Part shown: piece by piece, positions 25,276 through 55,170 of the stretch
Numbering within the stretch: the stretch's first letter is position 1
How the letters are laid out: every line of letters starts with the position of its first letter
Assembly: GCA_964016885.1 (NCBI GenBank)
Contig: OZ024742.1
Location: forward strand, 307,148,001 to 307,212,000
DNA: 64,000 nucleotides
Reading direction: 5' to 3'
DNA from: Eledone cirrhosa
Lineage: Eukaryota
The notes under the pieces: generated by a model
Databases searched by the model: none
Seen by the model: the letters and a program-made list of their open reading frames with translations, nothing else
What the model was told of the DNA's origin: nothing
Translations under genes and position numbers: made by a program

Positions 25276-25297
25276 CTAGATAAAATAAATAAAAATA

Positions 25298-28200
25298 GGG
25301 TTAACAGAGTGTAAGATTTCACTAATAGTGTATAATGTGTTGATGACAGAGTATTATGTATTATTAACAGGATATTATGTATAGTTCACAGAGAGTTATG
25401 TATAGTTAACAGAGTTATTTATAGTTAACAGAGAGTTATATATAGTTAACAGAGTGTTATGTATAGTTAACAGGGTGTTATGTATAGTTAACAGTGTTAT
25501 GTATGTTAACTATACATAACACCTTGTTGACTATACATAACACTTAACTATACATAACACCCTGTTACCTATACATAACACCCTGTTAACTATACATAAC
25601 ACCCTGTTAACTATACATAACACTGTTAACTATACATAACACCGTTAACTATACATAACACCCTGTTAAATATACATAACACTGTTAACTATACATAACA
25701 CTGTTAACTATACATAACACCCTGTTAAATATACGTAACACCCTGTTAACTATACGTAACACCCTGTTAAATATACATAACACTGTTAACATACATAACA
25801 CTGTTAACTATACATAACACCGTTAACTATACATAACACCCTGTTAACTATCCATAACACTGTTAACTATACATAACTCTGTTAACTATACATAACACCT
25901 TGTTAACTAGAGTGTTATGTATAGTTAACAGTGGTATGTATAGTTAACAGGGTGTTATGTATAGTTAACAGAGTGTTATGTATAGTTAACAGTGTTATAT
26001 ATAGTTAACAGAGTGTTATGTATAGTTAACAGAGTTTTATGTATAGTTTTCAGTGTTATGTAAAGTTAACAGTGTTATGTATAGTTAACAGTGTTATGTA
26101 TAGTTAACAGTGTTATGTATAGTTAACAGAGTTATGTATAGTTAACAGAGCTATGTATAGTTAACAGTGCTATGTATAGTTAACAGTGTTATGTATAGTT
26201 AACAGTGTTATATATAGTTAACAGAGTTATTTATAGTTAACAGTGCTATGTATAGTTAACAGTGTTATGTATAGTTAACAGTGTTATGTATAGTTAACAG
26301 TGCTATGTATAGTTAACAGTGTTATGTATAGTTAACAGGGTGTTATGTATAGTTAACAGGGTGTTATGTATAGTTAACAGTGTTATGTATATTTAACAGG
26401 GTGTTATGTATAGGTAACAGGGTGTTATGTATAGTTAACAGAGTGTTATGTATAGTTAATAGTGTCATGTATAGTTAACAGTGTTATGTATAGTTAACAG
26501 TGTTATGTATAGTTAACAGTGCTATGTATAGTTAACAGTGTTATGTATAGTTAACAGGGTGTTATGTATAGTTAACAGTGTTACGTATAGTTAACAGTGT
26601 TATGTATAGTTAACAGGGTGTTACGTATAGTTAACGGTGTTATGTATAGTTTACAGTGTTATGTAAAGTTAACAGTGGTAAGTATAGTTAACAGTGTTAT
26701 GTATAGTTAACAGTGTTATGTATAGTTAACAGTGCTATGTATAGTTAACAGGGTGTTATGTACAGTTAACAGTGTTATGTATAGTTAACAGGGTGTTAAG
26801 TATAGTTAACAGTGTTATGTATAGTTAACAGTGCTATGTATAGTTTACAGTGTTATGTAAAGTTAACAGTGGTAAGTATAGTTAACAGTGTTATGTATAG
26901 TTAACAGTGTTATGTATAGTTAACAGTGTTATGTATAGTTAACAGTGCTATGTATAGTTAACAGTGTTACGTTTAGTTCACAGTGTTATGTATAGTTAAC
27001 AGTGCTATGTATAGTTAACAGGGTGTTATGTATAGTTAACAGTGTTATGTATAGTTAACAGGGTGTTATGTATAGTTAACAGGGTGTTATGTATAGTTAA
27101 CAGTGTTATGTATATTTAACAGGGTGTTATGTATAGTTAACAGGGTGTTATGTATAGTTAACAGAGTGTTATGTATAGTTAATAGTGTTATGTATAGTTA
27201 ACAGTGTTATGTATAGTTAACAGTGTTATGTATAGTTAACAGTGTTATGTATAGTTAACAGGGTGTTATGTATAGTTAACAGTGTTATGTATAGTTAACA
27301 GTGTTATGTATAGTTAACAGGGTGTTATGTATAGTTAACAGTGTTATGTATAGTTAACAGGGTGTTATGTATAGTTAACAGTGTTATGTATAGTTGACAG
27401 TGCTATGTATAGTTAACAGTGTTATGTATAGTTAACAGTGTTATGTATAGTTAACAGTGCTATGTATAGTTAACAGTGCTATGTATAGTTAACAGTGCTA
27501 TGTATAGTTAACAGGGTGTTATGTATAGTTAACAGGGTGTTATGTATAGTTAACAGTGTTATGTATAGTTAACAGTGTTACGTATAGTTAACAGTGTTAT
27601 GTATAGTTAACAGGGTGTTACGTATAGTTTACAGTGTTATGTATAGTTAACAGTGGTAAGTATAGTTAACAGTGTTATGTATAGTTAACAGTGTTATGTA
27701 TAGTCAACAGTGTTATGTATAGTTAACAGTGCTATGTATAGTTAACAGGGTGTTATGTATAGTTAACAGTGTTATGTATAGTTAACAGGGTGTTATGTAT
27801 AGTTAACAGTGTTATGTATAGTTAACAGTGTTATGTATAGTTAACAGTGTTATGTATAGTTAACGGTGTTATGTATAGTTAACAGTGTTATGTATAGTTA
27901 ACAGTGTTATGTAGAGTTAACAGTGTTATGAATAGTTAACAGTGGTATGTATAGTTAACAATGTTATGTATAGTTAACAGTGTTATGTATGTTAACTATA
28001 CATAACACCTTGTTAACTATACATAACACTTAACTATACATAACACTGTTAACTATACATAACACTCTGTTAACTATACATAACACCGTTAATTATACAT
28101 AACACTGTTAACTATACATAACACTGTTAACTATACATAACGCTGTTAACTATACATAACACTGTTAACTATACATAACACCGTTAACTATACATAACGT

Positions 28201-31200
28201 CCTGTTAACTATCCATAACACTTCGTTAACTATACATAACTCTCTGTTAACTATACATAACACTCTGTTAACTAGAGTGTTATGTATAGTTAATAGGGTT
28301 ATGTATAGTTAACAGTGTTATGTATAGTTAACAGTGCTATGTATAGTTAACAGGGTGTTATGTATAGTTAACAGTGTTATGTATAGTTAACAGTGCTATG
28401 TATAGTTAACAGTGCTATGTATAGTTAACAGGGTGTTATGTATAGTTAACAGGGTGTTATGTATGTTAACTATACATAACATCTTGTTGACTATACATAA
28501 CACTGTTAACTATACATAACACCCTGTTAACTATACATAACACCGTTAACTATACATAACACCCTGTTAACTATACATAATACTGTTAACTATACATAAC
28601 ACCCTGTTAACTATACATAACACCCTGTTAAATATACATAACACTCTGTTAACTATACATAACTCTCTGTTAACTATACATAACACCTTGTTAATTAGAA
28701 TGTTATGTATAGTTAACAGTGTTATGTATAGTTAATAGAGTTATGTATAGTTAACAGGGTGTTATGTATAGTTAACAGAGTGTTATGTATAGCTAAAAGA
28801 GTGTTATGTATAGTTAACAGTGTTATATATAGTTAACAGAGTGTTATGTATAGTTAACAGTGTTTTGTATAGTTAACAGTGTTATGTATATTTAACAGGG
28901 TGTTACGTATAGTTAACAGAGTTTTATGTATAGTTTACAGTGTTATGTAAAGTTAACAGTGGTAAGTATAGTTAACAGTGTTATGTATAGTTAACAGTGT
29001 TATGTATAGTTAATAGTGTTATGTATAGTTAACAGTTCTATGTATAGTTAACAGTGTTATGCATAGTTAACAGTGTTATGTAGAGTTAACAGTGCTATGT
29101 ATAGTTAACAGGGTGTTATGTATGGTTAACAGTGTTATGTATAGTTAACAGTGTTATGTATAGTTAAAAGGGTGTTATGTATAGTTAACAGGGTGTTATG
29201 TATACTTAACAGTGTTATGTATATTTAACAGGGTGTTATGTATAGTTAACGGTGTTATGTATAGTTTACAGTGTTATGTAAAGTTAACAGTGGTAAGTAT
29301 AGTTAAGAGTGTTATGTATAGTTAACAGTGTTATGTATAGTTAACAGTGTTATGTATAGTTAACAGTGCTATGTATAGTTAACAGGGTGTAATGTATAGT
29401 TAACAGTGTTATGTATAGTTAACAGTGTTATGTATAGTTAATAGTGTTATGTATAGTTAACAGTTCTATGTATAGTTAACAGTGTTATGCATAGTTAACA
29501 GTGTTATGTAGAGTTAACAGTGCTATGTATAGTTAACAGGGTGTTATGTATGGTTAACAGTGTTATGTATAGTTAACAGTGTTATGTATAGTTAAAAGGG
29601 TGTTATGTATAGTTAACAGGGTGTTATGTATACTTAACAGTGTTATGTATATTTAACAGGGTGTTATGTATAGTTAACGGTGTTATGTATAGTTTACAGT
29701 GTTATGTAAAGTTAACAGTGGTAAGTATAGTTAAGAGTGTTATGTATAGTTAACAGTGTTATGTATAGTTAACAGTGTTATGTATAGTTAACAGTGCTAT
29801 GTATAGTTAACAGGGTGTAATGTATAGTTAACAGTGTTATGTATAGTTAACAGTGTTATGTATAGTTAACAGTGTTATGTATAGTTAACAGTGTTATGTA
29901 TAGTTAACAGTGTTATGTATAGTTAACAGTGTTATGTATAGTTAACAGTGTTATTTATAGTTAACAGTGTTATGAATAGTTAACAATGTTATGTATAGTT
30001 AACATGGTGTTATGTATAGTTAACAGTGTTATGTATGTTAACTATACATAACACCTTGTTGACTATACATAACACTTAACTATACATAACACTGTTAACT
30101 ATACATAACACCCTGTTAACTATACATAACACCCTGTTAACTATACATAACACGCCGTTAACTATACATAACACTCTGTTAACTATACATAACACATTGT
30201 TAACTAGAGTGTTATGTATAGTTAACAGTGTTATATATAGTTGATAGGGTTATGTATAGTTAACAGTGTTATGTATAGTTAACAGTGCTATGTATAGTTA
30301 ACAGGGTGTTATGTATAGTTAACAGTGTTATGTATATTTAACAGGCTGTTATGTATAGGTAACAGGGTGTTATGTATAGTTAACAGTGTTATGTATAGTT
30401 AACAGTGTTATGTATAGTTAACAGTGTTATGTATAGTTAACAGAGGTTATGTATAGTTAACAGGGTGTTACATATAGTTAACGGTGTTATGTATAGTTAA
30501 CAGAGTTATGTATAGTTAACAGTGCTATGTATAGTTAACAGTGTTATGTATAGTTAACAGTGTTATGTATAGTTAACAGTGCTATGTATAGTTAACAGGG
30601 TGTTATGTATAGTTAACAGTGTTATGTATAGTTAACAGGGTGTTATGTATAGTTAACAGTGTTATGTATATTTAACAGGGTGTTATGTGTAGGTAACAGG
30701 GTGTTATGTATAGTTAACAGAGTGTTATGTATAGTTAATCGTGTTATGTATAGTTAACAGTGTTATGTATAGTTAACAGTGCTATGTATAGTTAGCAGTG
30801 TGTTATGTATAGTTAACAGTGTTATGTATAGTTAACAGTGTTATGTATAGTTAACAGGGTGTTACGTATAGTTAACAGGGTGTTACGTATAGTTAACGGT
30901 GTTATGTATAGTTTACAGTGTTATGTAAAGTTAACAGTGGTAAGTATAGTTAACAGTGTTATGTATAATTAACAGTGTTATGTATAGTTAACAGTGTTAT
31001 GTATAGTTAACAGTGCTATGTATAGTTAACAGGGTGTTATGTACAGTTAACAGTGTTATGTATAGTTAACAGGGTGTTATGTATAGTTAACAGTGTTATG
31101 TATAGTTAACAGGGTGTTATGTATAGTTAACAGTGTTATGTATAGTTAACAGTGTTATGTATAGTTAACAGGGTGTTATGTATAGTTAACAGGGTGTTAT

Positions 31201-34200
31201 GTATAGTTAACAGTGTTATGTATATTTAACAGGGTGTTATGTATAGTTAACAGGGTGTTATGTATAGTTAACAGAGTGTTATGTATAGTTAATAGTGTTA
31301 TGTATAGTTAACAGTGTTATGTATAGTTAACAGTGTTATGTATAGTTAACAGTGTTATGTATAGTTAACAGTGCTATGTATAGTTAACAGGGTGTTATGT
31401 ATAGTTAACAGGGTGTTACGTATAGTTAACGGTGTTATGTATAGTTTACAGTGTTATGTAAAGTTAACAGTGATACGTATAGTTAACAGTGTTATGTATA
31501 GATAACAGTGTTATGTATAGTTAACAGTGTTATGTATAGTTAACAGTGTTATGTATAGTTAACAGGGTGTTACGTATAGTTAACGGTGTTATGTATAGTT
31601 TAAAGTGTTATGTAAAGTTAACAGTGGTAAGTATAGTTAACAGTGTTATGTATAGTTAACAGTGTTATGTATAGTTAACAGTGCTATGTATCGGTAACAG
31701 GGTGTCATGTATAGTTAACAGTGTTATGTATAGTTAACAGGGTGTTATGTATAGTTAACAGTGTTATGTATAGTTAACAGTGTTATGTATAGTTAACAAT
31801 GCTATGTATAGTTTACAGTGTTATGTAAAGTTAACAGTGGTAAGTATAGTTAACAGTGTTATGTATAGTTAACAGTGTTATGTATAGTTAACAGTGTTAT
31901 GTATAGTTAACAGTGCTATGTATAGTTAACAGTGCTATGTATAGTTAACAGTGTTACGTATAGTTAACAGAGTTATGTATAGTTAACAGTGCTATGTATA
32001 GTTAACAGGGTGTTATGTATAGTTAACAGTGTTATGTATAGTTAACAGGGTGTTATGTATAGTTAACAGGGTGTTATGTATAGTTAACAGGGTGTTATGT
32101 ATAGTTAACAGTGTTATGTATAATTAACAGGGTGTTATGTATAGTTAACAGGGTGTTATGTATAGTTAACAGAGTGTTATGTATAGTTAATAGTGTTATG
32201 TATAGTTAACAGTGTTATGTATAGTTAACAGTGTTATGTATAGTTAAGAGGGTGTTATGTATAGTTAACAGTGGTAAGTATAGTTAACAGTGTTATGTAT
32301 AGTTAACAGTGTTATGTATAGTCAACAGTGTTATGTACAGTTAACAGTGCTATGTATAGTTAACAGGGTGTTATGTATAGTTAACAGTGTTATGTATAGT
32401 TAACAGGGTGTTATGTAAAGTTAAGTGTTATGTATAGTTAACAGTGTTATGTATAGTTAACAGTGCTATGTATAGTTTACAGTGTTATGTAAAGTTAACA
32501 GTGGTAAGTATATTTAACAGTGTTATGTATAGTTAACAGTGTTATGTATAGTTAACAGTGTTATGTATAGTTAACAGTGTTATGTATATTTAACAGGGTG
32601 TTATGTATATTTAACAGGGTGTTATGTATAGTTAACAGGGTGTTATGTATAGTTAACAGTGTTATGTATAGTTAACAGGGTGTTATGTATAGTTAACAGG
32701 GTGTTATGTATAGTTAACAGTGTTATGTATATTTAACAGGGTGTTATGTATAGTTAACAGGGTGTTACGTATAGTTAACGGTGTTATGTATAGTTTACAG
32801 TGTTATGTATAGTTAACAGTGGTAAGTATAGTTAACAGGGTGTTATGTATAGTTAACAGGGTGTTATGTATAGTTAACAGTGTTATGTATAGTCAACAGT
32901 GTTATGTATAGTTATCAGTGCTATGTATAGTTAACAGGGTGCTATGTATAGTTAACAGTGTTATGTATAGTTAACAGGGTGTTATGTATAGTTAACAGTG
33001 TTATGTATAGTTAACAGAGTTATGTATAGTTAACAGTGTTATGTATAGTTAACAGTGGTATGTATAGTTAACAGTGGTATGTATAGTTAACAGTGTTATG
33101 TATAGTTAACAGTGTTATGTAAAGTTAACAGTGTTATGAATAGTTAACAATGTTATGTATAGTTAACAATGTTATGTATAGTTAACAGTGTTATGTATGT
33201 TAACTATACATAACACCTTGTTGACTATACATAACACTTAACTATACATAACACTGTTAACTATACATAACACTCTGTTAACTATACATAACACCCTGTT
33301 AACTATACATAACACCGTTAACTATACATAACACCGTTAACTATACATAACACTGTTAACTATACATAACACTGTTAACTATACATAACACTGTTAACTA
33401 TACATATCACTGTTAACTATACATAACACTGTTAACTATACTTAACACTGTTAACTATACATAACACTGTTAACTATACATAACACCGTTAACTATAGGT
33501 AACACCCTGTTAACTATACGTAACACCCTGTTAACTATACATAACACTGTTAACTATACATAACACGGTTAACTATACATAACACCCTGTTAACTATCCA
33601 TAACACTCCGTTAACTATACATAACTCTCTGTTAACTATACATAACACCCTGTTAACTAGAGTGTTATGTATAGTTAATAGGGTTATGTATAGTTAACAG
33701 TGTTATGTATAGTTAACAGTGCTATGTATAGTTAACAGGGTGTTATGTATAGTTAACAGTGTTATGTATAGTTAAGAGGGTGTTATGTATAGTTAACAGG
33801 GTGTTATGTATAGTTAACAGGGTGTTATGTATAGTTAACAGGGTGTTATGTATAGTTAACAGTGTTATGTATAGTGAAGAGGGTGTTATGTATAGTTAAC
33901 AGTGTTATGTATGTTAACTATACATAACACCTTGTTGACTATACATAACACTGTTATGTATAGTTAACAGTGTTATGTATAGTTAACAGGGTGTTATGTA
34001 TAGTTAACAGTGTTATGTATAGTTAACAGTGTTATGAATAGTTAACAATGTTATGTATAGTTAACAATGTTATGTATAGTTAACAATGTTATGTATAGTT
34101 AACAATGTTATGTATAGTTAACAGGGTGTTATGTATAGTTAACAGTGTTATGTATGTTAACTATACATAACACTTAACTATACATAACACTGTTAACTAT

Positions 34201-37200
34201 ACATAACACTCTGTTAACTATACATAACACCCTGTTAACTATACATAACACCCTGTTAACTATACATAACACCCCGTTAACTATACATAACACCCTGTTA
34301 ACTATACATAACCCTGTTACCTATACATAACACTGTTAACTATACATAACCCTATTAACTATACATAACACCGTTAACTATACATAACACCCTGTTAACT
34401 ATCCATAACACTGTTAACTATACATAACCCTATTAACTATACATAACACCGTTAACTATACATAACACCCTGTTAACTATCCATAACACTGTTAACTATA
34501 CATAACTCTCTGTTAACTATACATAACACTCTGTTAACTATACATAACACATTGTTAACTAGAGTGTTATGTGTAGTTAACAGTGTTATGTATAGTTAAT
34601 AGGGTTATGTATAGTTAACAGTGTTATGTATAGTTAACAGTGCTATGTATAGTTAACAGTGCTATGTATAGTTAACAGGGTGTTATGTATAATTAACAGG
34701 GTGTTATGTATAGTTAACAGAGTGTTAAGTATAGTTAACAGTGTTATGTGTAGTTAACAGTGTTATGTATAGTTAACAGTGTTATGTATAGTTAACATAG
34801 TGTTATGTATAGTTAACAGTGTTATGTATAGTTAACAGTGTTATGTATAGTTAACAGGGTGTTATGTATAGTTAACAGGGTGTTACATATAGTTAACGGT
34901 GTTATGTATAGTTTACAGTGTTATGTAAAGTTAACAGTGGTAAGTATAGTTAACAGTGTTATGTATAGTTAACAGTGTTATGTATATTTAACAGTTATAT
35001 ATATAGTTAACAGGGTGTTATGTATAGTTAACAGTGTTATGTATAGTTAACAGGGTATTATGTATAGTTAACAGTGTTATGTACAGTTAACAGTGTTATG
35101 TATAGTTAACAGTGTTATGTATAGTTAACAGTGTTATGTATAGTTAACAGTGTTATGAATAGTTAACAATGTTATGTATAGTTAACAGTGTTATGTATAG
35201 TTAACAGTGTTATGTATAGTTAACAGTGTTATGTATAGTTAACAGTGTTATGAATAGTTAACAGTGTTATGAATAGTTAACAATGTTATGTATAGTTAAC
35301 AGTGTTATGTATGTTAACTATACATAACACCTTGTTGACTATACATAACACTGTTAACTATACATAACACTCTGTTAACTATACATAACACCCTGTTAAC
35401 TATACATAACACACTGTTAACTATACATAACACCCTGTTAACTATACATAACACGCCGTTAACTATACATAACACCCTGTTAACTATACATAAACCTGTT
35501 ACCTATACATAACACTGTTAACTATACATAACACTGTTAACTATACATAACACCGTTAACTATACATAACACCCTGTTAACTATCCATAACACTGTTAAC
35601 TATACATAACACCGTTAACTATACATAACACCCTGTTAACTATCCATAACACTGTTAACTATACATAACTCTCTGTTAACTATACATAACACTCTGTTAA
35701 CTATACATAACACATTGTTAACTAGAGTGTTATGTATAGTTAACAGTGTTATATATAGTTGATAGGGTTATGTATAGTTAACAGTGTTATGTATAGTTAA
35801 CAGTGCTATGTATAGTTAACAGGGTGTTATGTATAGTTAACAGGGTGTTATGTATAGTTAACAGTGTTATGTATATTTAACAGGCTGTTATGTATAGTTA
35901 ACAGGGTGTTATGTATAGTTAACAGAGTGTTATGTATAGTTAATAGTGTTATGTATAGTTAACAGTGTTATGTATAGTTAACAGTGTTATGTATAGTTAA
36001 CAGGGTGTTATGTATAGTTAACAGGGTGTTATGTATAGTTAACAGTGTTATGTATAGTTAACAGTGTTATGTATAGTTAACAGTGTTATGTATAGTTAAC
36101 AGAGGTTATGTATAGTTAACAGGGTGTTACATATAGTTAACGGTGTTATGTATAGTTAACAGAGTTATGTATAGTTAACAGTGCTATGTATAGTTAACAG
36201 TGTTATGTATAGTTAACAGTGTTATGTATAGTTAACAGTGCTATGTATAGTTAACAGGGTGTTATGTATAGTTAACAGTGTTATGTATAGTTAACAGGGT
36301 GTTATGTATAGTTACAGTGTTATGTATATTTAACAGGGTGTTATGTATAGGTAACAGGGTGTTATGTATAGTTAACAGAGTGTTATGTATAGTTAATAGT
36401 GTTATGTATAGTTAACAGTGTTATGTATAGTTAACAGTGTTATGTATAGTTAACAGTGTTATGTATAGTTAACAGTGTTATGTATAGTTAACAGGGTGTT
36501 ATGTATAGTTAACAGTGTTATGTATAGTTAACAGTGTTATGTATAGTTAACAGTGTTATGTATAGTTAACAGGGTGTTACGTATAGTTAACGGTGTTATG
36601 TATAGTTTACAGTGTTATGTAAAGTTAACAGTGGTAAGTATAGTTAACAGTGTTATGTATATTTAACAGTGTTATGTATAGTTAACAGTGTTATGTATAG
36701 TTAACAGTGTTATGTATATTTAACAGTGCTATATATAGTTAACAGGGTGTTATGTATAGTTAACAGTGTTATGTATAGTTAACAGGGTATTATGTATAGT
36801 TAACAGTGTTATGTACAGTTAACAGTGTTATGTATAGCTAACAGTGTTATGTATAGTTAACAGTGTTATGTATAGTTAACAGTGTTATGAATAGTTAACA
36901 GTGTTATGTATAGTTAACAGTGTTATGTATAGTTAACAGTGTTATGTATAGTTAACAGTGTTATGTATAGTTAACAGTGTTATGAATAGTTAACAATGTT
37001 ATGTATAGTTAACATGGTGTTATGTATAGTTAACAGTGTTATGTATGTTAACTATACATAACACCTTGTTGACTATACATAACACTGTTTACTATACATA
37101 ACACTCTGTTAACTATACATAACACCCTATTAACTATACATAACACCCTGTTAACTATACATAACACTGTTAACATACATAACACTGTTAACTATACATA

Positions 37201-40200: not shown

Positions 40201-43200
40201 ATAGTTAACAATGTTATGTATAGTTAACAATGTTATGTATAGTTAACAGGGTGTTATGTATAGTTAACAGTGTTATGTATGTTAACTATACATAACACCC
40301 TGTTAACTATACATAACACTGAACTATACATAACACCGTTAACTATACATAACACCGTTAACTATACATAACACCGTTAACTATACATAACACTGTTAAC
40401 TATACATATCACTGTTAACTATACATAACACTGTTAACTATACATAACACCCTGTTAACTATCCATAACACTCCGTTAACTATACATAACTCTCTGTTAA
40501 CTATACATAACACCCTGTTAACTAGAGTGTTATGTATAGTTAATAGGGTTATGTATAGTTAACAGTGTTATGTATAGTTAACAGTGATATGTATAGTTAA
40601 CAGGGTGTTATGTATAGTTAACAGTGTTATGTATAGTTAACAGTGTTATGTATAGTTAAGAGGGTGTTATGTATAGTTAACAGGGTGTTATGTATAGTTA
40701 ACAGGGTGTTATGTATAGTTAACAGTGTTATGTATAGTTAACAGTGTTATGTATAATTAAGAGGGTGTTATGTATAGTTAACAGTGTTACGTATAGTTAA
40801 CAGTGTTATGTATGTTAACTATACATAACACCTTGTTGACTATACATAACACTGTTATGTATAGTTAACAGTGTTATGTATAGTTAACAGTGTTATGTAT
40901 AGTTAACAGGGTGTTATGTATAGTTAACAGTGTTATGTATAGTTAACAGTGTTATGAATAGTTAACAATGTTATGTATAGTTAACAATGTTATGTATAGT
41001 TAACAATGTTATGTATAGTTAACAATGTTATGTATAGTTAACAGGGTTTTATGTATAGTTAACAGTGTTATGTATGTTAACTATACATAACACCTTGTTG
41101 ACTATACATAACACTTAACTATACATAACACTGTTAACTATACATAACACTCTGTTAACTATACATAACACCCTGTTAACTATACATAACACTGTTAACT
41201 ATACATAACACCCTGTTAACTATACATAACACCCCGTTAACTATACATAACACCCTGTTAACTATACATAACCCTGTTACCTATACATAACCCTGTTACC
41301 TATACATAACACTGTTAACTATACATAACACTGTTAACTATACATAACACCGTTAACTATACATAACACCCTGTTAACTATCCATAACACTGTTAACTAT
41401 ACATAACTCTCTGTTAACTATACATAACTCTCTGTTAACTATACATAACACTCTGTTAACTATACATAACACATTGTTAACTAGAGTGTTATGTGTAGTT
41501 AACAGTGTTATGTATAGTTAATAGGGTTATGTATAGTTAACAGTGTTATGTATAGTTAACAGTGCTATGTATAGTTAACAGAGCTATGTATAGTTAACAG
41601 GGTGTTATGTATAGTTAACAGAGTGTTATGTATAGTTAACGGTGTTATGTATAGTTAACAGTGTTATGTATAGTTAACAGTGTTATGTATAGTTAACAGA
41701 GGTTATGTATAGTTAACAGGGTGTTACATATAGTTAACGGTGTTATGTATAGTTTACAGTGTTATGTAAAGTTAACAGTGGTAAGTAAAGTTAACAGTGG
41801 TAAATATAGTTAACAGTGTTATGTATAGTTAACAGTGCTATATATAGTTAACAGGGTGTTATGTATAGTTAACAGTGTTATGTATAGTTAACAGGGTATT
41901 ATGTATAGTTAACAGTGTTATGTACAGTTAACAGTGTTATGTATAGTTAACAGTGTTATGTATAGTTAACAGTGTTATGTATAGTTAACAGTGTTATGAA
42001 TAGTTAACAATGTTATGTATAGTTAACAGTATTATGAATAGTTAACAATGTTATGTATAGTTAACAATGTTATGTATAGTTAACAGGGTGTTATGTATAG
42101 TTAACAGTGTTATGTATGTTAACTATACATAACACCTTGTTGACTATACATAACACTGTTAACTATACATAACACTGTTAACTATACATAACACTGTTAA
42201 CTATACATAACACCGTTAACTATACATGACACCGTTAACTATACATAACACCGTTAACTATACATAACACTGTTAACTATACATAACACTGTTAACTATA
42301 CATAACACTGTTAACTATACATAACACCCTGTTAACTATACATAGCACTGTTAACTATACATAACACCCTGTTAACTATACATAACACCCTGTTAACTAT
42401 ACATAACACCCTGTTAACTATCCATAACACTGTTAACTATACATAACACCTTGTTAATTAGAGTGTTATGTATAGTTAACAGAGTGTTATGTATAGTTAA
42501 CAGAGTGTTATGTATAGTTAACAGTGTTATATATAGTTAACAGAGTGTTATGTATAGTTAACAGTGTTATGTATAGTTAACAGAGTTTTATGTATAGTTT
42601 ACAGTGTTATGTAAAGTTAACAGTGGTAAGTATAGTTAACAGTGTTATGTATAGTTAACAGTGTTATGTATAGTTAACAGTGTTATGTATAGTTAACAGT
42701 GTTATGTATAGTTAACAGTGTTGTGTATAGTTAACAGTGTTATGTATAGTTAACAGGAGGTTATGTATAGTTAACAGTGTTATGTATATTTAACAGTGTG
42801 TTATGTATAGTTAACAGGGTGTTATGTATAGTTAACAGAGTGTTATGTATAGTTAATAGTGTTATGTATAGTTAACAGTGTTATGTATAGTTAACAGTGT
42901 TATGTATAGTTAACAGTGCTATGTATAGTTAACAGTGTTATGTAAAGTTAACAGTGGTAAGTATAGTTAACAGGGTGTTATGTATAGTTAACAGTGTTAT
43001 CTATAGTTAACAGGGTGTTATGTATAGTTAACAGTGTTATGTATAGTTAACAGAGCGTTATGTATAGTTAACAGAGTGTTATGTATAGTTAACAGAGTGT
43101 TATGTATAGTTACCAGGGTGTTATGTATAGTTAACAGAGTGTTATGTATAGTTAACAGTGTTATGTATAGTTAACAGTGTTATGTATAGTTAACAGTGCT

Positions 43201-46200
43201 ATGTATAGTTAACAGTGCTATGTATAGTTAACAGTGTTATGTATAGTTAACAGGGTGTTATGTATAGTTAACAGTGTTATGTATAGTTAACAGTGTTATG
43301 TATAGTTAACAGTGTTATGTATAGTTAACAGTGTTATGTATAGTTAACAGTGTTATGTATAGTTAACAGTGTTATGTATAGTCAACAGGGTGTTATGTAT
43401 AGTTAACAGTGTTATGTATAGTTAACAGTGTTATGTATAGTTAACAGTGTGATGTATAGTTAACAGGGTGTTACGTATAGTTAACGGTGTTATGTATAGT
43501 TACCAGTGTTATGTATAGTTAACAGTGGTACGTATAGTTAACAGGGTGTTATGTATAGTTAACAGTGTTATGTATAGTTAACAGTGTTATGTATAGTTAA
43601 CAGTGTTATGTATAGTTAACAGTGTTATGTATAGTTAACAGTGCTATGTATAGTTAACAGGGTGTTATGTATAGTTAACAGTGTTATGTATAGTTACCAG
43701 GGTGTTATGTATAGTTAACAGTGTTATGTATAGTTAACAGGGTGTTATGTATAGTTAACAGTGTTATGTATAGTTAACATAGTGTTATGTATAGTTAACA
43801 GAGTGTTATGTATAGTTAACAGTGTTACGTATAGTTAACAGTGTTATGTATAGTTAACAGTGTTATGTATAGTTAACAGGGTGTTACGTATAGTTAACAG
43901 TGTTATGTATAGTTTACAGTGTTATGTAAAGTTAACAGTGGTAAGTATAGTTAACAGGGTGTTATGTAAAGTTAACAGTGGTAAGTCTAGTTAACAGTGT
44001 TATGTATAGTTAAGAGTGTTATGTATAGTTAAGAGTGTTATGTATAGTTAAGAGTGTTATGTATAGTTAACAGTGTTATGTATAGTTAACAGTGCTATGT
44101 ATAGTTAACAGTGTTATGTATAGTTAACAGTGCTATGTATAGTTAACAGGGTGTTATGTAAAGTTAACAGTGTTATGTATAGTTAACAGGGTGTTATGTA
44201 TAGTTAACAGTGTTATGTATATTTAACAGGGTGTTATGTATAGTTAACAGGGTGTTATGTATAGTTAACAGGGTGTTATGTATAGTTAACAGAGTGTTAT
44301 GTATAGTTAATAGTGTTATGTATAGTTAACAGTGTTATGTATAGTTAACAGTGCTATGTATAGTTAACTCTGTTAACTATATATAACACCCTGTTAACTA
44401 TACATATCACTGTTAACTATACATAGCACTGTTAATTATACATAACACTGTTAACTATACATAACACTGTTAACTATACATAACACTGTTAACTATACAT
44501 AACACTATTAACTATACATAACACTATTAACTATACATAACACTCTGTTAACTATACATAACACCCTGTTAACTATACATAACACCCTGTTAACTATACA
44601 TAACACCCTGTTATGTATATTTAACAGGGTGTTATGTATAGTTAACAGGGTGTTATGTATAGTTAACAGGGTGTTATGTATAGTTAACAGGGTGTTATGT
44701 ATAGTTAACAGTGTTATGTATAGTTAACAGTGTTATGTATAGTTAAGAGGGTGTTATGTATAGTTAACAGTGTTACGTATAGTTAACAGTGTTATGTATG
44801 TTAACTATACATAACACCTTGTTGACTATACATAACAGTGTTATGTATAGTTAACAGTGTTATGTATAGTTAACAGTGTTATGTATAGTTAACAGTGTTA
44901 TGAATAGTTAACAGTGTTATGTATAGTTAACAATGTTATGTATAGTTAACAATGTTATGTATAGTTAACAATGTTATGTATAGTTAACAATGTTATGTAT
45001 AGTTAACAATGTTATGTATAGTTAACAGGGTTTTATGTATAGTTAACAGTGTTATGTATGTTAACTATACATAACACCTTGTTGACTATACATAACACTT
45101 AACTATACATAACACTGTTAACTATACATAACACTCTGTTAACTATACATAACACCCTGTTAACTATACATAACACTGTTAACTATACATAACACCCTGT
45201 TAACTATACATAACACCCCGTTAACTATACATAACACCCTGTTAACTATACATAACCCTGTTACCTATACATAACCCTGTTACCTATACATAACACTGTT
45301 AACTATACATAACACTGTTAACTATACATAACACCGTTAACTATACATAACACCCTGTTAACTATCCATAACACTGTTAACTATACATAACTCTCTGTTA
45401 ACTATACATAACACTCTGTTAACTATACATAACACATTGTTAACTAGAGTGTTATGTGTAGTTAACAGTGTTATGTATAGTTAATAGGGTTATGTATAGT
45501 TAACAGTGTTATGTATAGTTAACAGAGCTATGTATAGTTAACAGGGTGTTATGTATAGTTAACAGGGTGTTATGTATAGTTAACAGAGTGTTATGTATAG
45601 TTAACAGTGTTATGTATAGTTAACAGTGTTATGTATAGTTAACATAGTGTTATGTATAGTTAAGAGTGTTATGTATAGTTAACAGGGTGTTATGTATAGT
45701 TAACAGGCTGTTATGTATAGTTAACAGTGTTATGTATAGTTAACAGTGTTATGTATAGTTAACAGAGGTTATGTATAGTTAACAGGGTGTTACATATAGT
45801 TAACGGTGTTATGTATAGTTTACAGTGTTATGTAAAGTTAACAGTGGTAAGTAAAGTTAACAGTGGTAAATATAGTTAACAGTGTTATGTATAGTTAACA
45901 GTGTTATGTATATTTAACAGTGCTATATATAGTTAACAGGGTGTTATGTATAGTTAACAGTGTTATGTATAGTTAACAGGGTATTATGTATAGTTAACAG
46001 TGTTATGTACAGTTAACAGTGTTATGTATAGTTAACAGTGTTATGTATAGTTAACAGTGTTATGTATAGTTAACAGTGTTATGAATAGTTAACAATGTTA
46101 TGTATAGTTAACAGTATTATGAATAGTTAACAATGTTATGTATAGTTAACAATGTTATGTATAGTTAACAGGGTGTTATGTATAGTTAACAGTGTTATGT

Positions 46201-49200
46201 ATGTTAACTATACATAACACCTTGTTGACTATACATAACACTGTTAACTATACATAACACTGTTAACTATACATAACACTGTTAACTATACATAACACTG
46301 TTAACTATACATAACACCGTTAACTATACATAACACCGTTAACTATACATAACACCGTTAACTATACATAACACTGTTAACTATACATAACACTGTTAAC
46401 TATACATAACACTGTTAACTATACATAACACCCTGTTAACTATACATAGCACTGTTAACTATACATAACACCCTGTTAACTATACATAACACCCTGTTAA
46501 TTATACATAACACCCTGTTAACTATCCATAACACTGTTAACTATACATAACACCTTGTTAACTAGAGTGTTATGTATAGTTAACAGTATTATATATAGTT
46601 AACAGAGTGTTATGTATAGTTAACAGTGTTATGTATAGTTAACAGAGTTTTATGTATAGTTTACAGTGTTATGTAAAGTTAACAGTGGTAAGTATAGTTA
46701 ACAGTGTCATGTATAGTTAACAGTGTTATGTATAGTTAACAGTGTTATGTATAGTTAACAGTGTTATGCATAGTTAACAGTGTTATGTATAGCTAACAGT
46801 GTTATGTATAGTTAACAGGGTGTTATGTATAGTTAACAGTGTTATGTATATTTAACAGTGTGTTATGTATAGTTAACAGGGTGTTATGTATAGTTAACAG
46901 AGTGTTATGTATAGTTAATAGTGTTATGTATAGTTAACAGTGTTATGTATAGTTAACAGTGTTATGTATAGTTAACAGTGCTATGTATAGTTAACAGTGT
47001 TATGTAAAGTTAACAGTGGTAAGTATAGTTAACAGGGTGTTATGTATAGTTAACAGTGTTATCTATAGTTAACAGGGTGTTATGTATAGTTAACAGTGTT
47101 ATGTATAGTTAACAGAGCGTTATGTATAGTTAACAGAGTGTTATGTATAGTTAACAGAGTGTTATGTATAGTTACCAGGGTGTTATGTATAGTTAACAGA
47201 GTGTTATGTATAGTTAACAGTGTTATGTATAGTTAACAGTGTTATGTATAGTTAACAGTGCTATGTATAGTTAACAGTGTTATGTATAGTTAACAGGGTG
47301 TTATGTATAGTTAACAGTGTTATGTATAGTTAACAGTGTTATGTATAGTTAACAGTGTTATGTATAGTTAACAGTGTTATGTATAGTTAACAGTGTTATG
47401 TATAGTTAACAGTGTTATGTATAGTCAACAGGGTGTTATGTATAGTTAACAGTGTTATGTATAGTTAACAGTGTGATGTATAGTTAACAGGGTGTTACGT
47501 ATAGTTAACGGTGTTATGTATAGTTACCAGTGTTATGTATAGTTAACAGTGGTACGTATAGTTAACAGGGTGTTATGTATAGTTAACAGTGTTATGTATA
47601 GTTAACAGTGTTATGTATAGTTAACAGTGTTATGTATAGTTAACAGTGCTATGTATAGTTAACAGGGTGTTATGTATAGTTAACAGTGTTATGTATAGTT
47701 ACCAGGGTGTTATGTATAGTTAACAGTGTTATGTATAGTTAACAGTGTTATGTATAGTTAACATAGTGTTATGTATAGTTAACAGAGTGTTATGTATAGT
47801 TAACAGTGTTACGCATAGTTAACAGTGTTATGTATAGTTAACAGTGTTATGTATAGTTAACAGTGTTATGTATAGTTAACAGGGTGTTACGTATAGTTAA
47901 CAGTGTTATGTATAGTTTACAGTGTTATGTAAAGTTAACAGTGGTAAGTATAGTTAACAGGGTGTTATGTAAAGTTAACAGTGGTAAGTATAGTTAACAG
48001 TGTTATGTATAGTTAAGAGTGTTATGTATAGTTAAGAGTGTTATGTATAGTTAAGAGTGTTATGTATAGTTAACAGTGTTATGTATAGTTAACAGTGCTA
48101 TGTATAGTTAACAGTGCTATGTATAGTTAACAGGGTGTTATGTAAAGTTAACAGTGTTATGTATAGTTAACAGGGTGTTATGTATAGTTAACAGTGTTAT
48201 GTATATTTAACAGGGTGTTATGTATAGTTAACAGGGTGTTATGTATAGTTAACAGGGTGTTATGTATAGTTAACAGAGTGTTATGTATAGTTAATAGTGT
48301 TATGTATAGTTAACAGTGTTATGTATAGTTAACAGTGCTATGTATAGTTAACTCTGTTAACTATATATAACACCCTGTTAACTATACATATCACTGTTAA
48401 CTATACATAGCACTGTTAACTATACATAACACTGTTAACTATACATAACACTATTAACTATACATAACACTATTAACTATACATAACACCCTGTTAACTA
48501 TACATAACACCCTGTTAACTATACATAACACCCTGTTAACTATACATAACTCTGTTAACTATACATAACACCCTGTTATGTATATTTAACAGGGTGTTAT
48601 GTATAGTTAACAGGGTGTTATGTATAGTTAACAGGGTGTTATGTATAGTTAATAGTGTTATGTATAGTTAACAGTGTTATGTATAGTTAACAGTGTTATG
48701 TATAGTTAACAGTGCTATGTATAGTTAACAGTGATATGTATAGTTAACAGGGTGTTATATATAGTTAACAGTGTTATGTATAGTTTAGAGTGTTATGTAA
48801 AGTTAACAGTGGTAAGTATAGTTAACAGTGTTATGTATAGTTAACAGTGTTATGTATAGTTAACAGTGCTATGTATAGTTAACAGTGTTATGTATAGTTA
48901 ATAGTGTTATGTATAGTTAACAGTGTTATGTATAGTTAACAGTGTTATGTATAGTTAACAGTGCTATGTATAGTTAACAGTGCTATGTATAGTTAACAGT
49001 GTTACATATAGTTAACAGTGCTATATATAGTTTACAGTGTTATGTAAAGTTAACAGTGGTAAGTATCGTTAACAGTGTTATGTATAGTTAACAGTGTTAT
49101 GTATAGTTAACAGTGTTATGTATAGTTAACAGTGCTATGTATAGTTAACAGGGAGTTATGTATAGTTAACAGTGTTATGTATAGTTAACAGGGTGTTATG

Positions 49201-52200
49201 TATAGTTAACAGGGTGTTATGTATAGTTAACAGGGTGTTATGTATAGTTAACAGTGTTATGTATATTTAACAGGGTATTATGTATAGTTAACAGGGTGTT
49301 ATGTATAGTTAACAGAGTGTTATGTATAGTTAACAGTGTTATGTATAGTTAACAGGGTGTTATGTATAGTTAACAGTGTTATGTATAGTTAACAGTGTTA
49401 TGTATAGTTAACGGGGTGTTACGTATAGTTAACGGTGTTATGTATAGTTTACAGTGTTATGTAAAGTTAACAGTGGTAAGTATAGTTAACAGTGTTATGT
49501 ATAGTTAACAGTGTTACGTATAGTCAACAGTGTTATGTATAGTTAACAGTGCTATGTATAGTTAATAGGGTGTTATGTATAGTTAACAGTGTTATGTATA
49601 GTTAACAGGGTGTTATGTATAGTTAACAGGGTGTTATGTATAGTTAACAGGGTGTTATGTATAGTTAACAGTGTTATGTATAGTTAACAGTGTTATGTAT
49701 AGTTAACAGTGTTATGTAGAGTTAACAGTGTTATGTAGAGTTAACAGTGTTATGAATAGTTAACAATGTTAAGCATACTTAACAATGTTAAGCATAGTTA
49801 ACAGTGTTATGTATAGTTAACAGGGTGTTATGTATAGTTAACAGTGTTATGTATGTTAACTATACAAACACCTTGTTGACTATACATAACACAACTATAC
49901 ATAACACTGTTAACTATACATAACACTCTGTTAACTATACATAACACCCTGTTAACTATACATAACACCCTGTTAACTATACATAACACCGTTAACTATA
50001 CATAACACCCTGTTAACTATACATAACCCTGTTAACTATACATAACACTGTTAACTATACATAACACTGTTAACTATACATAACACTGTTAACTATACAT
50101 AACACCGTTAACTATACATAACACCCTGTTAACTATCCATAACACTCCGTTAACTATACATAACACTGTTAACTATACATAACACATTGTTAACTAGAGT
50201 GTTATGTATAGTTAACAGTGTTATGTATAGTTAATAGGGTTATGTATAGTTAACAGTGTTATGTATAGTTAACAGGGTGTTATGTATAGTTAACAGTGTT
50301 ATGTATAGTTAACAGTGTTATGTATAGTTAAGAGGGTGTTATGTATAGTTAACAGTGTTATGTATAGTTAACAGGGTGTTATGTATAGTTAACAGTGTTA
50401 TGTATAGTTAACAGGGTGTTATGTATAGTTAACAGTGTTATGTATGTTAACTATACATAACACCTTGTTGACTATACATAACACTTAACTATACATAACA
50501 CTGTTAACTATACATAACACTCTGTTAACTATACATAACACCCTGTTAACTATACATAACACCCTGTTAACTATACATAACACCCTGTTAACTATACATA
50601 ACACTGTTAACTATACATAACACCGTTAACTATACATAACACCCTGTTAAATATACATAACACTGTTAACTATACATAACACTGTTAACTATACATAACA
50701 CTGTTAACTATACATAACACTGTTAACTATACATAACACCCTGTTAACTATACATAACACTGTTAACATACATAACACTGTTAACTATACATAACACCCT
50801 GCTAACTATACACAACACCCTGTTAACTATCCATAACACTCTGTTAACTATACATAACTCTCTGTTAACTATACATAACACCTTGTTAACTAGAGTGTTA
50901 TGTATAGTTAACAGTGTTATGTATAGTTAATAGGGTTATGTATAGTAAACAGGGTGTTATGTATAGTAAACAGAGTGTTATGTATAGTTAACAGAGTGTT
51001 ATGTATAGTTAACAGTGTTATATATAGTTAACAGAGTGTTATGTATAGTTAACAGTGTTATGTATATTTAACAGGGTGTTACATATAGTTAACAGAGTTT
51101 TATGTATAGTTTACAGTGTTATGTATAGTTAACAGTGGTAAGTATAGTTAACAGTGTTATGTATAGTTAACAGTGTTATGTATAGTTAACAGTGTTATGT
51201 ATAGTTAACAGTGTTATGTATAGTTAACAGTGATATGTATAGTTAACAGTGTTATGTATAGTTAACAGTGTTATGTATAGTTAACAGTGCTATGTATAGT
51301 TAACAGGGAGTTATGTATAGTTAACAGTGTTATGTATAGTTAACAGGGTGTTATGTATAGTTAACAGGGTGTTATGTATAGTTAACAGGGTGTTATGTAT
51401 AGTTAACAGTGTTATGTATATTTAACAGGGTATTATGTATAGTTAACAGTGTTATGTATAGTTAACAGGGTGTTATGTATAGTTAACAGTGTTATGTATA
51501 GTTAACAGTGTTATGTATAGTTAACGGGGTGTTACGTATAGTTAACGGTGTTATGTATAGTTTACAGTGTTATGTAAAGTTAACAGTGGTAAGTATAGTT
51601 ATTCAGTGTTATGTATAGTTAACAGTGTTACGTATAGTCAACAGTGTTATGTATAGTTAACAGTGCTATGTATAGTTAATAGGGTGTTATGTATAGTTAA
51701 CAGTGTTATGTATAGTTAACAGGGTGTTATGTATAGTTAACAGGGTGTTATGTATAGTTAACAGGGTGTTATGTATAGTTAACAGTGTTATGTATAGTTA
51801 ACAGTGTTATGTATAGTTAACATTGTTATGTAGAGTTAACAGTGTTATGTAGAGTTAACAGTGTTATGAATAGTTAACAATGTTAAGCATAGTTAACAAT
51901 GTTATGTATAGTTAACAGGGTGTTATGTATAGTTAACAGTGTTATGTATGTTAACTATACAAACACCTTGTTGACTATACATAACACAACTATACATAAC
52001 ACTGTTAACTATACATAACACTCTGTTAACTATACATAACACCCTGTTAACTATACATAACACCCTGTTAACTATACATAACACCGTTAACTATACATAA
52101 CACCCTGTTAACTATACATAACCCTGTTAACTATACATAACACTGTTAACTATACATAACACTGTTAACTATACATAACACTGTTAACTATACATAACAC

Positions 52201-53325
52201 TGTTAACTATACATAACACCCTGTTAACTATCCATAACACTCCGTTAACTATACATAACACTCTGTTAACTATACATAACACATTGTTAACTAGAGTGTT
52301 ATGTATAGTTAACAGTGTTATGTATAGTTAATAGGGTTATGTATAGTTAACAGTGTTATGTATAGTTAACAGGGTGTTATGTATAGTTAACAGTGTTATG
52401 TATAGTTAACAGTGTTATGTATAGTTAAGAGGGTGTTATGTATAGTTAACAGTGTTATGTATAGTTAACAGGGTGTTATGTATAGTTAACAGTGTTATGT
52501 ATGTTAACTATACATAACACCTTGTTGACTATACATAACACTTAACTATACATAACACTGTTAACTATACATAACACTCTGTTAACTATACATAACACCC
52601 TGTTAACTATACATAACACCCTGTTAACTATACATAACACTGTTAACTATACATAACACCGTTAACTATACATAACACCCTGTTAAATATACATAACACT
52701 GTTAACTATACATAACACCCTGTTAACTATACATAACACTGTTAACATACATAACACTGTTAACTATACATAACACCCTGCTAACTATACACAACACCCT
52801 GTTAACTATCCATAACACTCTGTTAACTATACATAACTCTCTGTTAACTATACATAACACCTTGTTAACTAGAGTGTTATGTATAGTTAACAGTGTTATG
52901 TATAGTTAATAGGGTTATGTATAGTAAACAGGGTGTTATGTATAGTTAACAGAGTGTTATGTATAGTTAACAGTGTTATATATAGTTAACAGAGTGTTAT
53001 GTATAGTTAACAGTGTTATGTATATTTAACGGTGTTACGTATAGTTAACAGAGTTTTATGTATAGTTTACAGTGTTATGTAAAGTTAACAGTGGTAAGTA
53101 TAGTTAACAGTGTTATGTATAGTTAACAGTGTTATGTATAGTTAACAGTGTTATGTATAGTTAACAGTGTTATGTATAGTTAACAGTGTTATGTATAGTT
53201 AACAGTGTTATGTATAGTTAACAGTGTTATGTATTATTAACATGGTGTTATTTATTATTAACATCGTGTCATGTATAATTAACAGGTAGTTATATATTAA
53301 TAACAGTGTTATGTATAATTAACAG
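25298..53325. repeat. ~28 kb tandem satellite of a 19-21 bp unit (GTGTTATGTATAGTTAACA plus GG/GA variants) with internal inverted blocks
   Basis: Directly visible; nearly every unit carries palindromic GTTAAC; no ORF in the track between 25322 and 53306; about 22 reverse-oriented blocks. Confidence 0.99.
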
Positions 53326-55170
53326 AATGTCAGTACAAAACAGGATGTTGTTGGAGATGAGAGTGTCCCGAATAAATTTAAAAAAGGAGGCCTGGAAATT
53401 TCATTATCAGAGACTGATGAATGTGGAGAACGAATGGGACAGAGTGAAATTACCCCCAGTAGACCCAACAGAGGGACCAGCTATTGACATTGACGAATAT
53501 AGGGTACAAGAGGCAATTAAGGAAATGAAAAATGGTAAGGCTGCTGGACTGTCAGGGATAGTTGCTGAGATGCTGAAGGCATCAGGAAAAGTAGGCACTA
53601 AACTAGTTACACGCATCATTAATCAAGCTATATATGGTGGTATCATACCCAAAGACTGGTGCAGCAGTATTCTCATAAATTGCTACAAAGGTAAAGGGGA
53701 TGCTCTAGAGAGGAGCAATTATAGGGGCATAAAGCTGATGGATCAGGTTATGAAAGTGGCAGAGAGAATATTAGTGAAAGGGTCAATTTAGATGAGATGC
53801 ATGTGTGGTTTTGTGCCTCGGAAAAGTACACCAGATACCCTCTTCATAGTGAGGCAACTACAAGAGAGGTTCTTAGAGAAGAATAAGTCACTATACTTAG
53901 CTTTTGTTGACCTAGAGAAGGCCTTTGAAAGGGTACCCCGATCTGTCATCTAGTGGTCCCTAAGGAAACTAGGTGTAGAGAAATGGCTTGTGAGGACAGT
54001 GCAAGCTATGTACAGGGGTGCTGTCAGTAAAGTGAGAATAGGAAGGGAGTTTAGTGAGGAATTCCAGATACAAGTAGGTGTACATCAGGGTTCGGTCCTC
54101 AGCCCGCTCTTGTTCATTATAGTCCTCCAAGCAATAACAGAGGAGTTTAAGACTGGCTGCCCATGGGAACTTCTCTATGTTGATGATCTGGTTCTTATAG
54201 CAGAATCAGTAGAGGAGCTAGAGAATAAATTCTGGCTATGGAAACAGTAGTTGGAATCAAGAGGCCCGAGAGTGAACATAGCTAAAACAAAAGTGTTGAT
54301 AAGTAGAAGAGAGGATAATACTCTGATTCCATCGGAGAAATGGCCATGCTCGATATGTAGGAAAGGAACTGGCATAAATTCCATAAAATGTTTACAATGC
54401 AGATCTTGGGTACACAAGAGATGTAGTGGTATAGCAGGCAAACTAACAGGTAGGAAAAACTACGTATGCAGTAGATGTACAAGGAAAATTGGCAGTAGTA
54501 ATCGCAGTGATAAACACATTTTTCCAATGCAGATGGGTCCTATAGAAGTGGTTGATAGTTTCCGGTACCTAGGTGATCAGATTAGCATGGGAGGGGGTGT
54601 TCCGAGGCCATAGTATCTAGAATAAGGACGGGTTCAAAGAAGTTTAGGGAGCTGCTTCCTCTGTTGACTAAGAAAGGTTTCTCTCTGCGTACGAAAGGAT
54701 GGTTATATGATGCCTGTGTGAGATGTGCGATGTTGCATGGTAGTGAGACATGGGCAGCAACTGCAGAAGATATGCGATGGCTGGAGAGAAATGAAGCAAG
54801 TATGCTCCGTTGGATGTGCAATGCCAATGAGCATGAACGACCAAGCATAGACGAGTTGAGAAAGAAACTGGGTATAAGAGGGATAAGTTGTTGTGTGCAG
54901 GAGAGAAGGCTGAGATGGTATGGACATGTGATGCGCATGGAGGATTACCGCTGGGTAAAAAAGTGCCAAGAAATCCCAGTAGACAGAAGACGCAGTAGAA
55001 GTAGACCACATAAAACATGGGCGGAGGTGGTGAGAGCAGTCCTCAGATCACTGAAACTCACCGAGGAGATGAGGAAGGACCGTGACAAGTGGAGAGATGC
55101 TATGCTAAATAGGACCTGTCCAACCCTTGCAAGCAGGGAAAAGCGGACGTATGATGATGATGATGATGAT
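53326..55170 (+). mobile_element. 5'-truncated RTE-clade LINE with stops and frameshifts
   Basis: RT motifs NYRGIKL, FVDLEKAF, GVHQGSVLSPLLF, LYVDDL, FRYLG, RLRWYGHV; (GAT)n tail at about 55153-55170. Confidence 0.95.

Follow-up and report, generated by a model that had tools for sequence, protein, structure and literature searches.

A private minisatellite with 22 inverted blocks in the last intron of SLC35B3 of Eledone cirrhosa: likely descent from a few rearrangements and predicted local RNA hairpins

In the cephalopod Eledone cirrhosa, the last intron of the gene SLC35B3 is filled largely by a minisatellite whose unit switches orientation again and again, and this raises the question of whether the resulting RNA hairpins do something for the gene or are simply carried by it. 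The locus lies in a 64,000-nucleotide (nt) stretch of contig OZ024742.1 (positions 307,148,001 to 307,212,000, forward strand, of the 3.0-Gb assembly GCA_964016885.1), which we call the window and within which all positions below are counted. An earlier note on this DNA had proposed a “built-in” giant double-stranded RNA (dsRNA) that could act as a hyper-editing sink, as a source of endogenous small interfering RNAs (endo-siRNAs), or as a brake on splicing. With a probability of roughly 70%, we favor a simpler account, in which the array is a neutral by-product: its inversions arose by template switching and were copied by duplications, and the local hairpins that they encode are edited by ADAR.

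The host gene is SLC35B3 (also named PAPST2), transcribed from the minus strand. The peptide of its last exon matched two of seven candidates, both named PAPS transporter 2, from Octopus vulgaris (74%) and Argonauta hians (64%), a homology that points to an octopod. A gene model built from the window and 40 kb beyond it has nine exons, GT-AG boundaries at all eight introns, and an open frame of 461 amino acids with 82% identity to P0001, a Pfam UAA protein. Searching the genome for SLC35B3 gave nine matches, eight at this locus and one on C14, the latter a paralog of only 23% identity; with an open frame and a single locus, a pseudogene or a second SLC35B3 copy was ruled out. The exon model also confirmed that the array sits within intron 8, where the earlier note had placed it. 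The array occupies 28.0 kb of this 30.5-kb intron, and the rest consists of a 1.85-kb fragment of a long interspersed nuclear element (LINE), a degenerate array remnant, and short stretches of unique sequence at the ends (Table 1).

Tandem Repeats Finder reported a 19-bp unit in 1,409 copies over positions 25911 to 53325, plus two flanking rows, and splitting the array into tokens gave 1,418 monomers, of which 898 are 19 bp and 487 are 21 bp long; units of this size fall within the range of minisatellites (about 10 to 60 bp). Identity to the unit consensus is 95% in the interior and 72 to 87% at both degenerate ends, as expected for an array homogenized from within. The unit is private to this one intronic locus. 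In a genome-wide count, a check that the earlier note had suggested, genome and window totals were equal for all three patterns used, namely, a 38-mer (212 forward and 36 reverse), an 18-mer (601 and 166), and a 30-mer with up to three mismatches (746 and 137). Likewise, a 29-mer at an inversion junction had 17 exact matches in the genome, all 17 of them inside the window. These counts ruled out a dispersed satellite family. No Rfam family was found over positions 24000 to 56500, and a known RNA family was thus rejected for the array.

Strand-specific cores yielded 26 reversed calls, which resolved into 22 real blocks and 4 false calls on a single motif; after the 22 blocks had been flipped back in silico, no reversed core was left. 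The blocks measure 45 to 462 bp each and total 6,501 bp, equal to 23% of the array and 21% of the intron. The approximately 22 reverse blocks of the earlier note therefore number exactly 22, and all of their starts agree with ours to within 0 to 3 bp.

The boundaries of these blocks fall into few classes: two on the left, with 20 and 2 members, and three on the right, with 17, 3, and 2. All 17 type 1 blocks, once flipped back, had regular units at either end, the pattern of a clean reciprocal inversion (microhomology, 1 bp). In alignments of the full-length blocks, each of the 17 type 1 blocks also matched another inverted block better than any forward segment, and private variants are common to most of them. 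The three 45-bp blocks keep the type 1 left junction but return to forward sequence through a shared word of 5 bp. The two type 2 blocks (starting at 44365 and 48349), in contrast, both aligned best with a forward segment. They share a rare pair of variants that occurs in forward orientation only directly after the block at 48349, and the forward run upstream of that block repeats the same segment in truncated form. This layout is a direct-inverted-direct triplication with 4 to 5 bp of inverted microhomology, clear at 48349 and partly retained at 44365. Shared junction classes, restored units, and block-to-block alignments together rule out 22 independent inversions; it is likely, judging from these sequence comparisons, that the 22 blocks descend from about three rearrangement events and were copied by later duplications.

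Short inversions produced by template switching (PMC5453318) and small inverted triplications of the same origin (PMC13334657) have been described. The type 2 blocks resemble the latter in their duplicate-inverted-duplicate order, with an inverted part of 230 to 249 bp versus a median of 160 bp given in PMC13334657 and with junctions of 4 to 5 reverse-complementary bp versus a mode of 6 bp in that paper. The events that these two sources describe, however, occurred singly in unique sequence (in yeast mutants, cancers, or humans), whereas the products seen here became fixed and amplified in a satellite. We could establish no link between palindromes in the unit and inversion: arrays with self-complementary words of 6 to 8 bp also occur without inversions.

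The way in which the blocks multiplied can be read from the repeats among them. Long exact direct repeats cluster at offsets of ~428, ~2,100, ~4,000, and ~6,870 bp, and aligned duplicate copies at ~0.43, 2.1, 4.0, and 6.9 kb differ by 0, 1.84, 0.86, and 1.03% substitutions, respectively; the array thus has a higher-order structure in which multiunit blocks were duplicated as larger units with these periods. The first and last inverted blocks differ by 2.5%. Nested duplications of 2 to 7 kb spread the blocks in the same way as neighboring point variants. Among 11 point-variant markers, the number of main-orientation copies was 17 to 36 for 7 and 9 to 12 for 4, and because these markers bracket the 20 copies of the main junction, that number requires no selection. 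The term “built-in,” which implies selection, is therefore not borne out, since the block count matches that of passenger point variants. Type 1 blocks reach to 8 units from the left end of the array and to 20 units from the right end, from which we infer that the first inversion is older than the expansion of the array.

These observations suggest the following sequence of events. Template switching during replication would have caused about three events, comprising the type 1 reciprocal inversion and the type 2 triplication whose junction patterns are given above. Nested duplications of ~6.9, 4.0, 2.1, and 0.43 kb (0 to 1.8% substitutions) then carried the blocks along, and the first inversion probably occurred while the array was small, so that almost any later expansion would have copied it. 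During transcription, each block is predicted to pair with neighboring forward units in imperfect stems of roughly 150 to 450 bp, with at most 6.5 kb of pairs; ADAR would edit and loosen these stems, exon 8 would be spliced to exon 9 through the free splice sites, and degradation of the intron would follow.

Two other accounts of the DNA itself deserve attention. One is that inversion drove the growth of the array, with hairpins or cruciforms at the junctions stalling replication and triggering duplications and template switches, such that the blocks spread selfishly at the DNA level. Every large higher-order unit does contain blocks, a second and recent inverted triplication occurred in the same array, and PMC13081366 reports that longer arrays in Tribolium more often carry inversions. 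We nevertheless consider this unlikely: 23 other arrays of at least 9 kb in this genome grew without any inversion (see below), the 428-bp duplication and several marker expansions involve only forward sequence, and the junction is not overrepresented relative to point variants. The other account is that the inversions are assembly or read artifacts, such as fold-back chimeras or a collapsed or duplicated repeat. Repeats are hard to assemble, and one 428-bp duplication is exact. But the junctions are stereotyped rather than random, the blocks carry diverging variants of their own, the longest exact repeat in the array is only 476 bp, and the window contains no N and lies on a 379-Mb contig, all of which make an artifact very improbable.

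What the blocks would mean for the RNA was assessed by folding the transcribed strand. All 20 block-containing segments of 900 nt gave −0.28 to −0.63 kcal/mol per nt, compared with −0.16 to −0.19 for the same segments with the blocks flipped back and −0.19 to −0.31 for eight segments of neighboring introns. Since a gap-tolerant “longest duplex” measure did not separate native from control segments, it was dropped and the length of uninterrupted helices was used instead. In all eight block segments reexamined, such helices reached 32 to 62 bp, versus 5 to 6 bp in the flipped-back controls, and 183 to 265 bp lay in helices of at least 20 bp, of which the controls had none. Perfect inverted matches of 45 to 106 bp were present within 1 kb for 19 of the 22 blocks, placing near-identical arms close together in one pre-mRNA. 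The earlier note's expectation that the pre-mRNA would carry units in both orientations and form strong hairpins thus stands, the hairpins as predictions, with the correction that the 77:23 ratio of orientations caps pairing at 6.5 kb. Nor did a single “giant” dsRNA emerge, the longest perfect inverted match in the array being 143 bp; the likely state of the RNA, according to these models, is a series of local imperfect stems.

Stems of this kind are plausible substrates for ADAR. PMC9699675 places most editing in O. vulgaris in introns and 3′ untranslated regions and finds splice sites to be changed very rarely, PMC9068888 describes ubiquitous editing in squid that targets repeats in introns and untranslated regions, and PMC9989829 names repeats as the main editing targets. 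According to PMC5625713, hyper-editing accompanies long stretches of near-perfect dsRNA, which it presumably unwinds, and its signal in octopus is very high. The intronic inverted repeats edited by ADAR in that source, inverted Alu pairs and frog Harbinger palindromes, are like the present array in that both orientations lie close together in one pre-mRNA with long near-perfect stems. They differ in that the arms here belong to a tandemly repeated minisatellite that is inverted internally, any one block could pair with hundreds of partners, and editing is predicted. By analogy, ADAR editing of the array stems is likely.

A role as a genome-wide editing sink is another matter. Our sample comprised 179 stretches of 10 kb at even spacing on 20 large contigs, with more weight on C1 to C4; the last of the 180 planned fell on a contig that was too short. 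These contained a mean of 219 and a median of 105 bases in locally pairable arms per 10 kb, with a maximum of 1,889 and more than 1,000 in 7 of the 179; a control in which the array was flipped back had 0 locally pairable bases. (A BLAST measure of inverted coverage was dropped after scoring 0, 173, and 0 bases on the array itself in three positive controls.) Extrapolated to the genome, with DNA counted whether or not it is transcribed, about 65 Mb has a local inverted partner. Because the array makes up only about 0.01% of this pairable sequence, we rejected the global editing sink. Porath et al. (PMC5625713), applying stricter rules, give 4.4e−3 of loci for Octopus bimaculoides, and under that figure the share of the array would still be near 0.05%.

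The proposed endo-siRNA source fared little better as far as action in trans is concerned. No complementary target was found elsewhere in the genome with an exact 18-mer or with a 30-mer allowing up to three mismatches, searches that do not cover targets matching only a seed, and since the unit occurs nowhere else, a trans-acting role is unlikely. In Drosophila, hairpin RNA loci are stand-alone transcripts whose endo-siRNAs silence complementary genes in trans. Those loci resemble the array in forming long imperfect hairpins from repeated units, but the array lies in an intron, and the rest of the assembly contains no sequence complementary to it.

The idea of a brake on splicing found little support as well. 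In the region adjoining the 3′ splice site, the fold had a z score of −30 relative to 20 shuffles; about 75 nt separate the end of the first stem from the splice site, and the centroid fold leaves the final ~75 intronic nt unpaired. This modeled proximity of a stem to the 3′ splice site is the only point in favor of a brake. The sense strand of the array contains no GT[AG]AG donor and no strong acceptor, the 15 nt preceding a YAG never having more than 6 T, versus 11 at the true acceptor; cryptic sense-strand splice sites in the array were rejected on these grounds. A variant of the unit that reads as a consensus splice donor is present in 36 copies between positions 26673 and 53089, all antisense to the gene and none inside an inverted block. 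Its absence from the sense strand would be compatible with selection against cryptic donors, but it is uninformative given so few inversion events. The branch point listed in Table 1 was predicted from the branch-point consensus; within 80 nt of the 3′ splice site, there is no branch-point-like motif other than its TTAAC, in the terminal degenerate unit. Over the whole array, the sense strand has 1,257 such motifs. The branch-point region of the intron may thus have been the source from which the satellite grew.

A more general form of the functional argument holds that the hairpins are a selected cis-regulatory element, in which ADAR, dsRNA-binding proteins, or locus-specific small RNAs tune splicing or nuclear retention of the last intron and thereby the dose of SLC35B3. 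In its favor are the density of local duplex potential, the highest among the stretches measured; the position of the first stem relative to the 3′ splice site; the lack of inversions in the 23 other giant arrays; and the fact that any siRNA from the array would be locus specific. The marker counts, on the other hand, require no selection. We found no evidence for a selected role, regard such an element as unlikely, and consider that the array is probably unimportant as a regulatory element. A still more elaborate version, in which an early inversion made the array a cassette of RNA hairpins that amplifies itself and bears about 1,250 branch-point-like motifs, tissue- and temperature-dependent loading of coleoid ADAR sets the rate of last-intron splicing, and array length becomes a heritable dial on Golgi sulfation, is very unlikely.

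A further possibility is that most transcripts lack the full array, through a poly(A) signal early in the intron or through piecewise intron removal, and form little dsRNA. The sense strand does carry AATAAA at 55243 and 53256 and ATTAAA at 55182. Such hexamers are common in AT-rich introns, however. Exon 9, conserved and intact, codes for the final part of the transporter domain and lies in the sole SLC35B3 copy that was found; moreover, local stems would still be transcribed under piecewise removal. We therefore give this possibility hardly any weight.

Several points nonetheless weigh against the neutral by-product that we favor. Editing, folding in vivo, and splicing of exon 8 to exon 9 are predictions, and neutrality is argued from copy numbers within one haplotype. 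The mechanism at the type 1 junction is less certain than that of the type 2 event, having only 1 bp of microhomology when read as a clean inversion. The 10-kb pieces of the array have 2,075 to 2,877 pairable bases, above any of the 179 background stretches. Finally, inversion-bearing giant arrays are uncommon in this genome. Tandem arrays filling at least 9 kb of a 10-kb stretch, with differing units, made up 23 of the 179 sampled stretches (13%), so that a giant private minisatellite is in itself ordinary here, yet none of the 23 contained inverted 20-mers; by the rule of three, densely inverted arrays would be at most about 12% of giant arrays.

The closest parallel that we found is with the macro-dyads of Tribolium (PMC13081366; bioRxiv 10.1101/2024.12.02.626372). 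As these sources describe them, orientation changes at a small number of highly conserved junctions, which exist in thousands of copies and contain no foreign sequence, and the array is similar, with two left and three right classes for 22 blocks. Macro-dyads, however, are multikilobase, near-symmetric subarrays of abundant satellites with units of 110 to 700 bp that lie at (peri)centromeres of many chromosomes. The array has a 19/21-bp unit and a single intronic locus, and its inverted parts are short (45 to 462 bp) and amount to 23%. Because two defining features, the multikilobase near-symmetric arms and the abundant centromeric location, are absent, we do not count the array among macro-dyads, although it works like a miniature of one. 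PMC13081366 states that macro-dyads have been documented in no genus but Tribolium, and the bioRxiv paper cites inversions inside satellite arrays in mouse.

Inversions inside satellite arrays occur in other animals too. Satellite-filled introns are familiar from Y-linked genes of Drosophila, where they reach hundreds of kilobases to megabases. There, as here, a protein-coding gene has an intron that is swollen by satellite DNA and across which transcription must proceed; the SLC35B3 intron differs in its 30-kb length, housekeeping host, and mixed orientation. Our literature search, one part of which was weak and matched animal names only, found neither this locus nor any inverted intronic minisatellite of a cephalopod described, and an O. 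vulgaris repeat annotation (PMC13282606) yielded no passage on satellites.

Real and well explained at the DNA level, the array is an uncommon, mechanistically readable architecture and, as modeled, a strong predicted ADAR substrate. It preserves in compact form the origin and spread of inversions within satellite DNA, three events and a few duplications having given 22 blocks with fixed junctions. The “conserved inversion sites” of beetle centromeres, to which a function has been ascribed, could be explained neutrally in the same way. With the unit confined to one intron, any edited read or small RNA from the array would map to this locus alone, which could make it a clean natural reporter of the action of coleoid ADAR and Dicer on repeat-derived dsRNA.

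Table 1. Positions of the array, its inverted blocks, and the surrounding SLC35B3 features in the window
Feature	Positions	Strand	Remarks
Minisatellite array	25298..53325	.	~1,420 units of 19/21 bp; 77% in one orientation
Inverted block, type 1	25504..25909	-	406 bp; J1/J2 junction pair, as in the other type 1 blocks
Inverted block, type 1	27990..28274	-	285 bp
Inverted block, type 1	28464..28697	-	234 bp
Inverted block, type 1	30036..30206	-	171 bp
Inverted block, type 1	33198..33659	-	462 bp
Inverted block, truncated type 1	33912..33956	-	45 bp; J1/J2b
Inverted block, type 1	34155..34561	-	407 bp
Inverted block, type 1	35312..35724	-	413 bp
Inverted block, type 1	37046..37299	-	254 bp
Inverted block, type 1	40280..40524	-	245 bp
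Inverted block, truncated type 1	40813..40857	-	45 bp
Inverted block, type 1	41075..41483	-	409 bp
Inverted block, type 1	42117..42460	-	344 bp
Inverted block, type 2	44365..44613	-	249 bp; J1b/J2c; middle copy of inverted triplication
Inverted block, truncated type 1	44799..44843	-	45 bp
Inverted block, type 1	45059..45446	-	388 bp
Inverted block, type 1	46202..46564	-	363 bp
Inverted block, type 2	48349..48578	-	230 bp; mirrors the following forward run 48579-48771
Inverted block, type 1	49854..50196	-	343 bp
Inverted block, type 1	50445..50892	-	448 bp
Inverted block, type 1	51949..52293	-	345 bp
Inverted block, type 1	52502..52871	-	370 bp
Broken LINE fragment	53326..55170	+	1.85 kb; RVT_1 match, ATG-repeat tail; inserted into degenerate array end
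Degenerate remnant of the array minisatellite	55176..55455	+	Beyond the LINE; 75% to consensus
SLC35B3 exon 9, coding part with stop	25122..25275	-	
SLC35B3 intron 8 (last)	25276..55738	-	30,463 bp; GT-AG; phase 2
Predicted branch point TTAAC	25300..25304	-	Adenosine 26 nt from intron 3′ end; within terminal degenerate unit-like element
SLC35B3 exon 8	55739..55808	-	
SLC35B3 exon 7	57359..57470	-	
SLC35B3 exon 6	58432..58524	-	
SLC35B3 exon 5	60863..60960	-	Exons 1 to 4 lie beyond the window (L002 to L005)

The wider sample has features of its own. Giant arrays among the sampled stretches (L006 to L184) include L007, L018, L031, L047, L059, L067, L124, and L182, with units of 16 to 180 bp where measured. 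The genome seems to hold hundreds of megabases in thousands of giant private minisatellites, and this abundance is possibly more remarkable than the array in the SLC35B3 intron. A 6.2-kb array at L103:1269-7466 consists of AT-dinucleotide runs with interspersed GC and is self-complementary by composition, and several other stretches have AT-rich arrays of 2 to 4 kb that would form dsRNA if transcribed. Two pairs of arrays (L075 and L156, L055 and L095) have apparently related units on different contigs or far apart; unlike the intron array, then, some satellites of this genome appear from their sequences to be dispersed families.

Within SLC35B3, the intron 8 LINE fragment, which we take to belong to the RTE clade, is flanked by a candidate 10-bp target-site duplication (53316 to 53325 and 55179 to 55188). 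Positions 53362 to 55170 of this fragment form an inverted pair with L002:3463-5283 in intron 2 (88% over 1.8 kb), and since the pair flanks exons 3 to 8, it provides a conventional lead for editing or for back-splicing into circular RNA. A second inverted pair, 62619 to 63578 in intron 4 and L004:5709-6675 in intron 1 (94.9% over 971 bp), flanks exons 2 to 4. Further broken LINE copies in introns 4 and 5 lie at 61527 to 63117, 69% identical to the intron 8 fragment and in the same orientation, and at about 59300 to 60330, the latter judged by eye from the sequence. Downstream of SLC35B3, a separate 20-bp minisatellite is present in 24 copies at positions 6742 to 7223.

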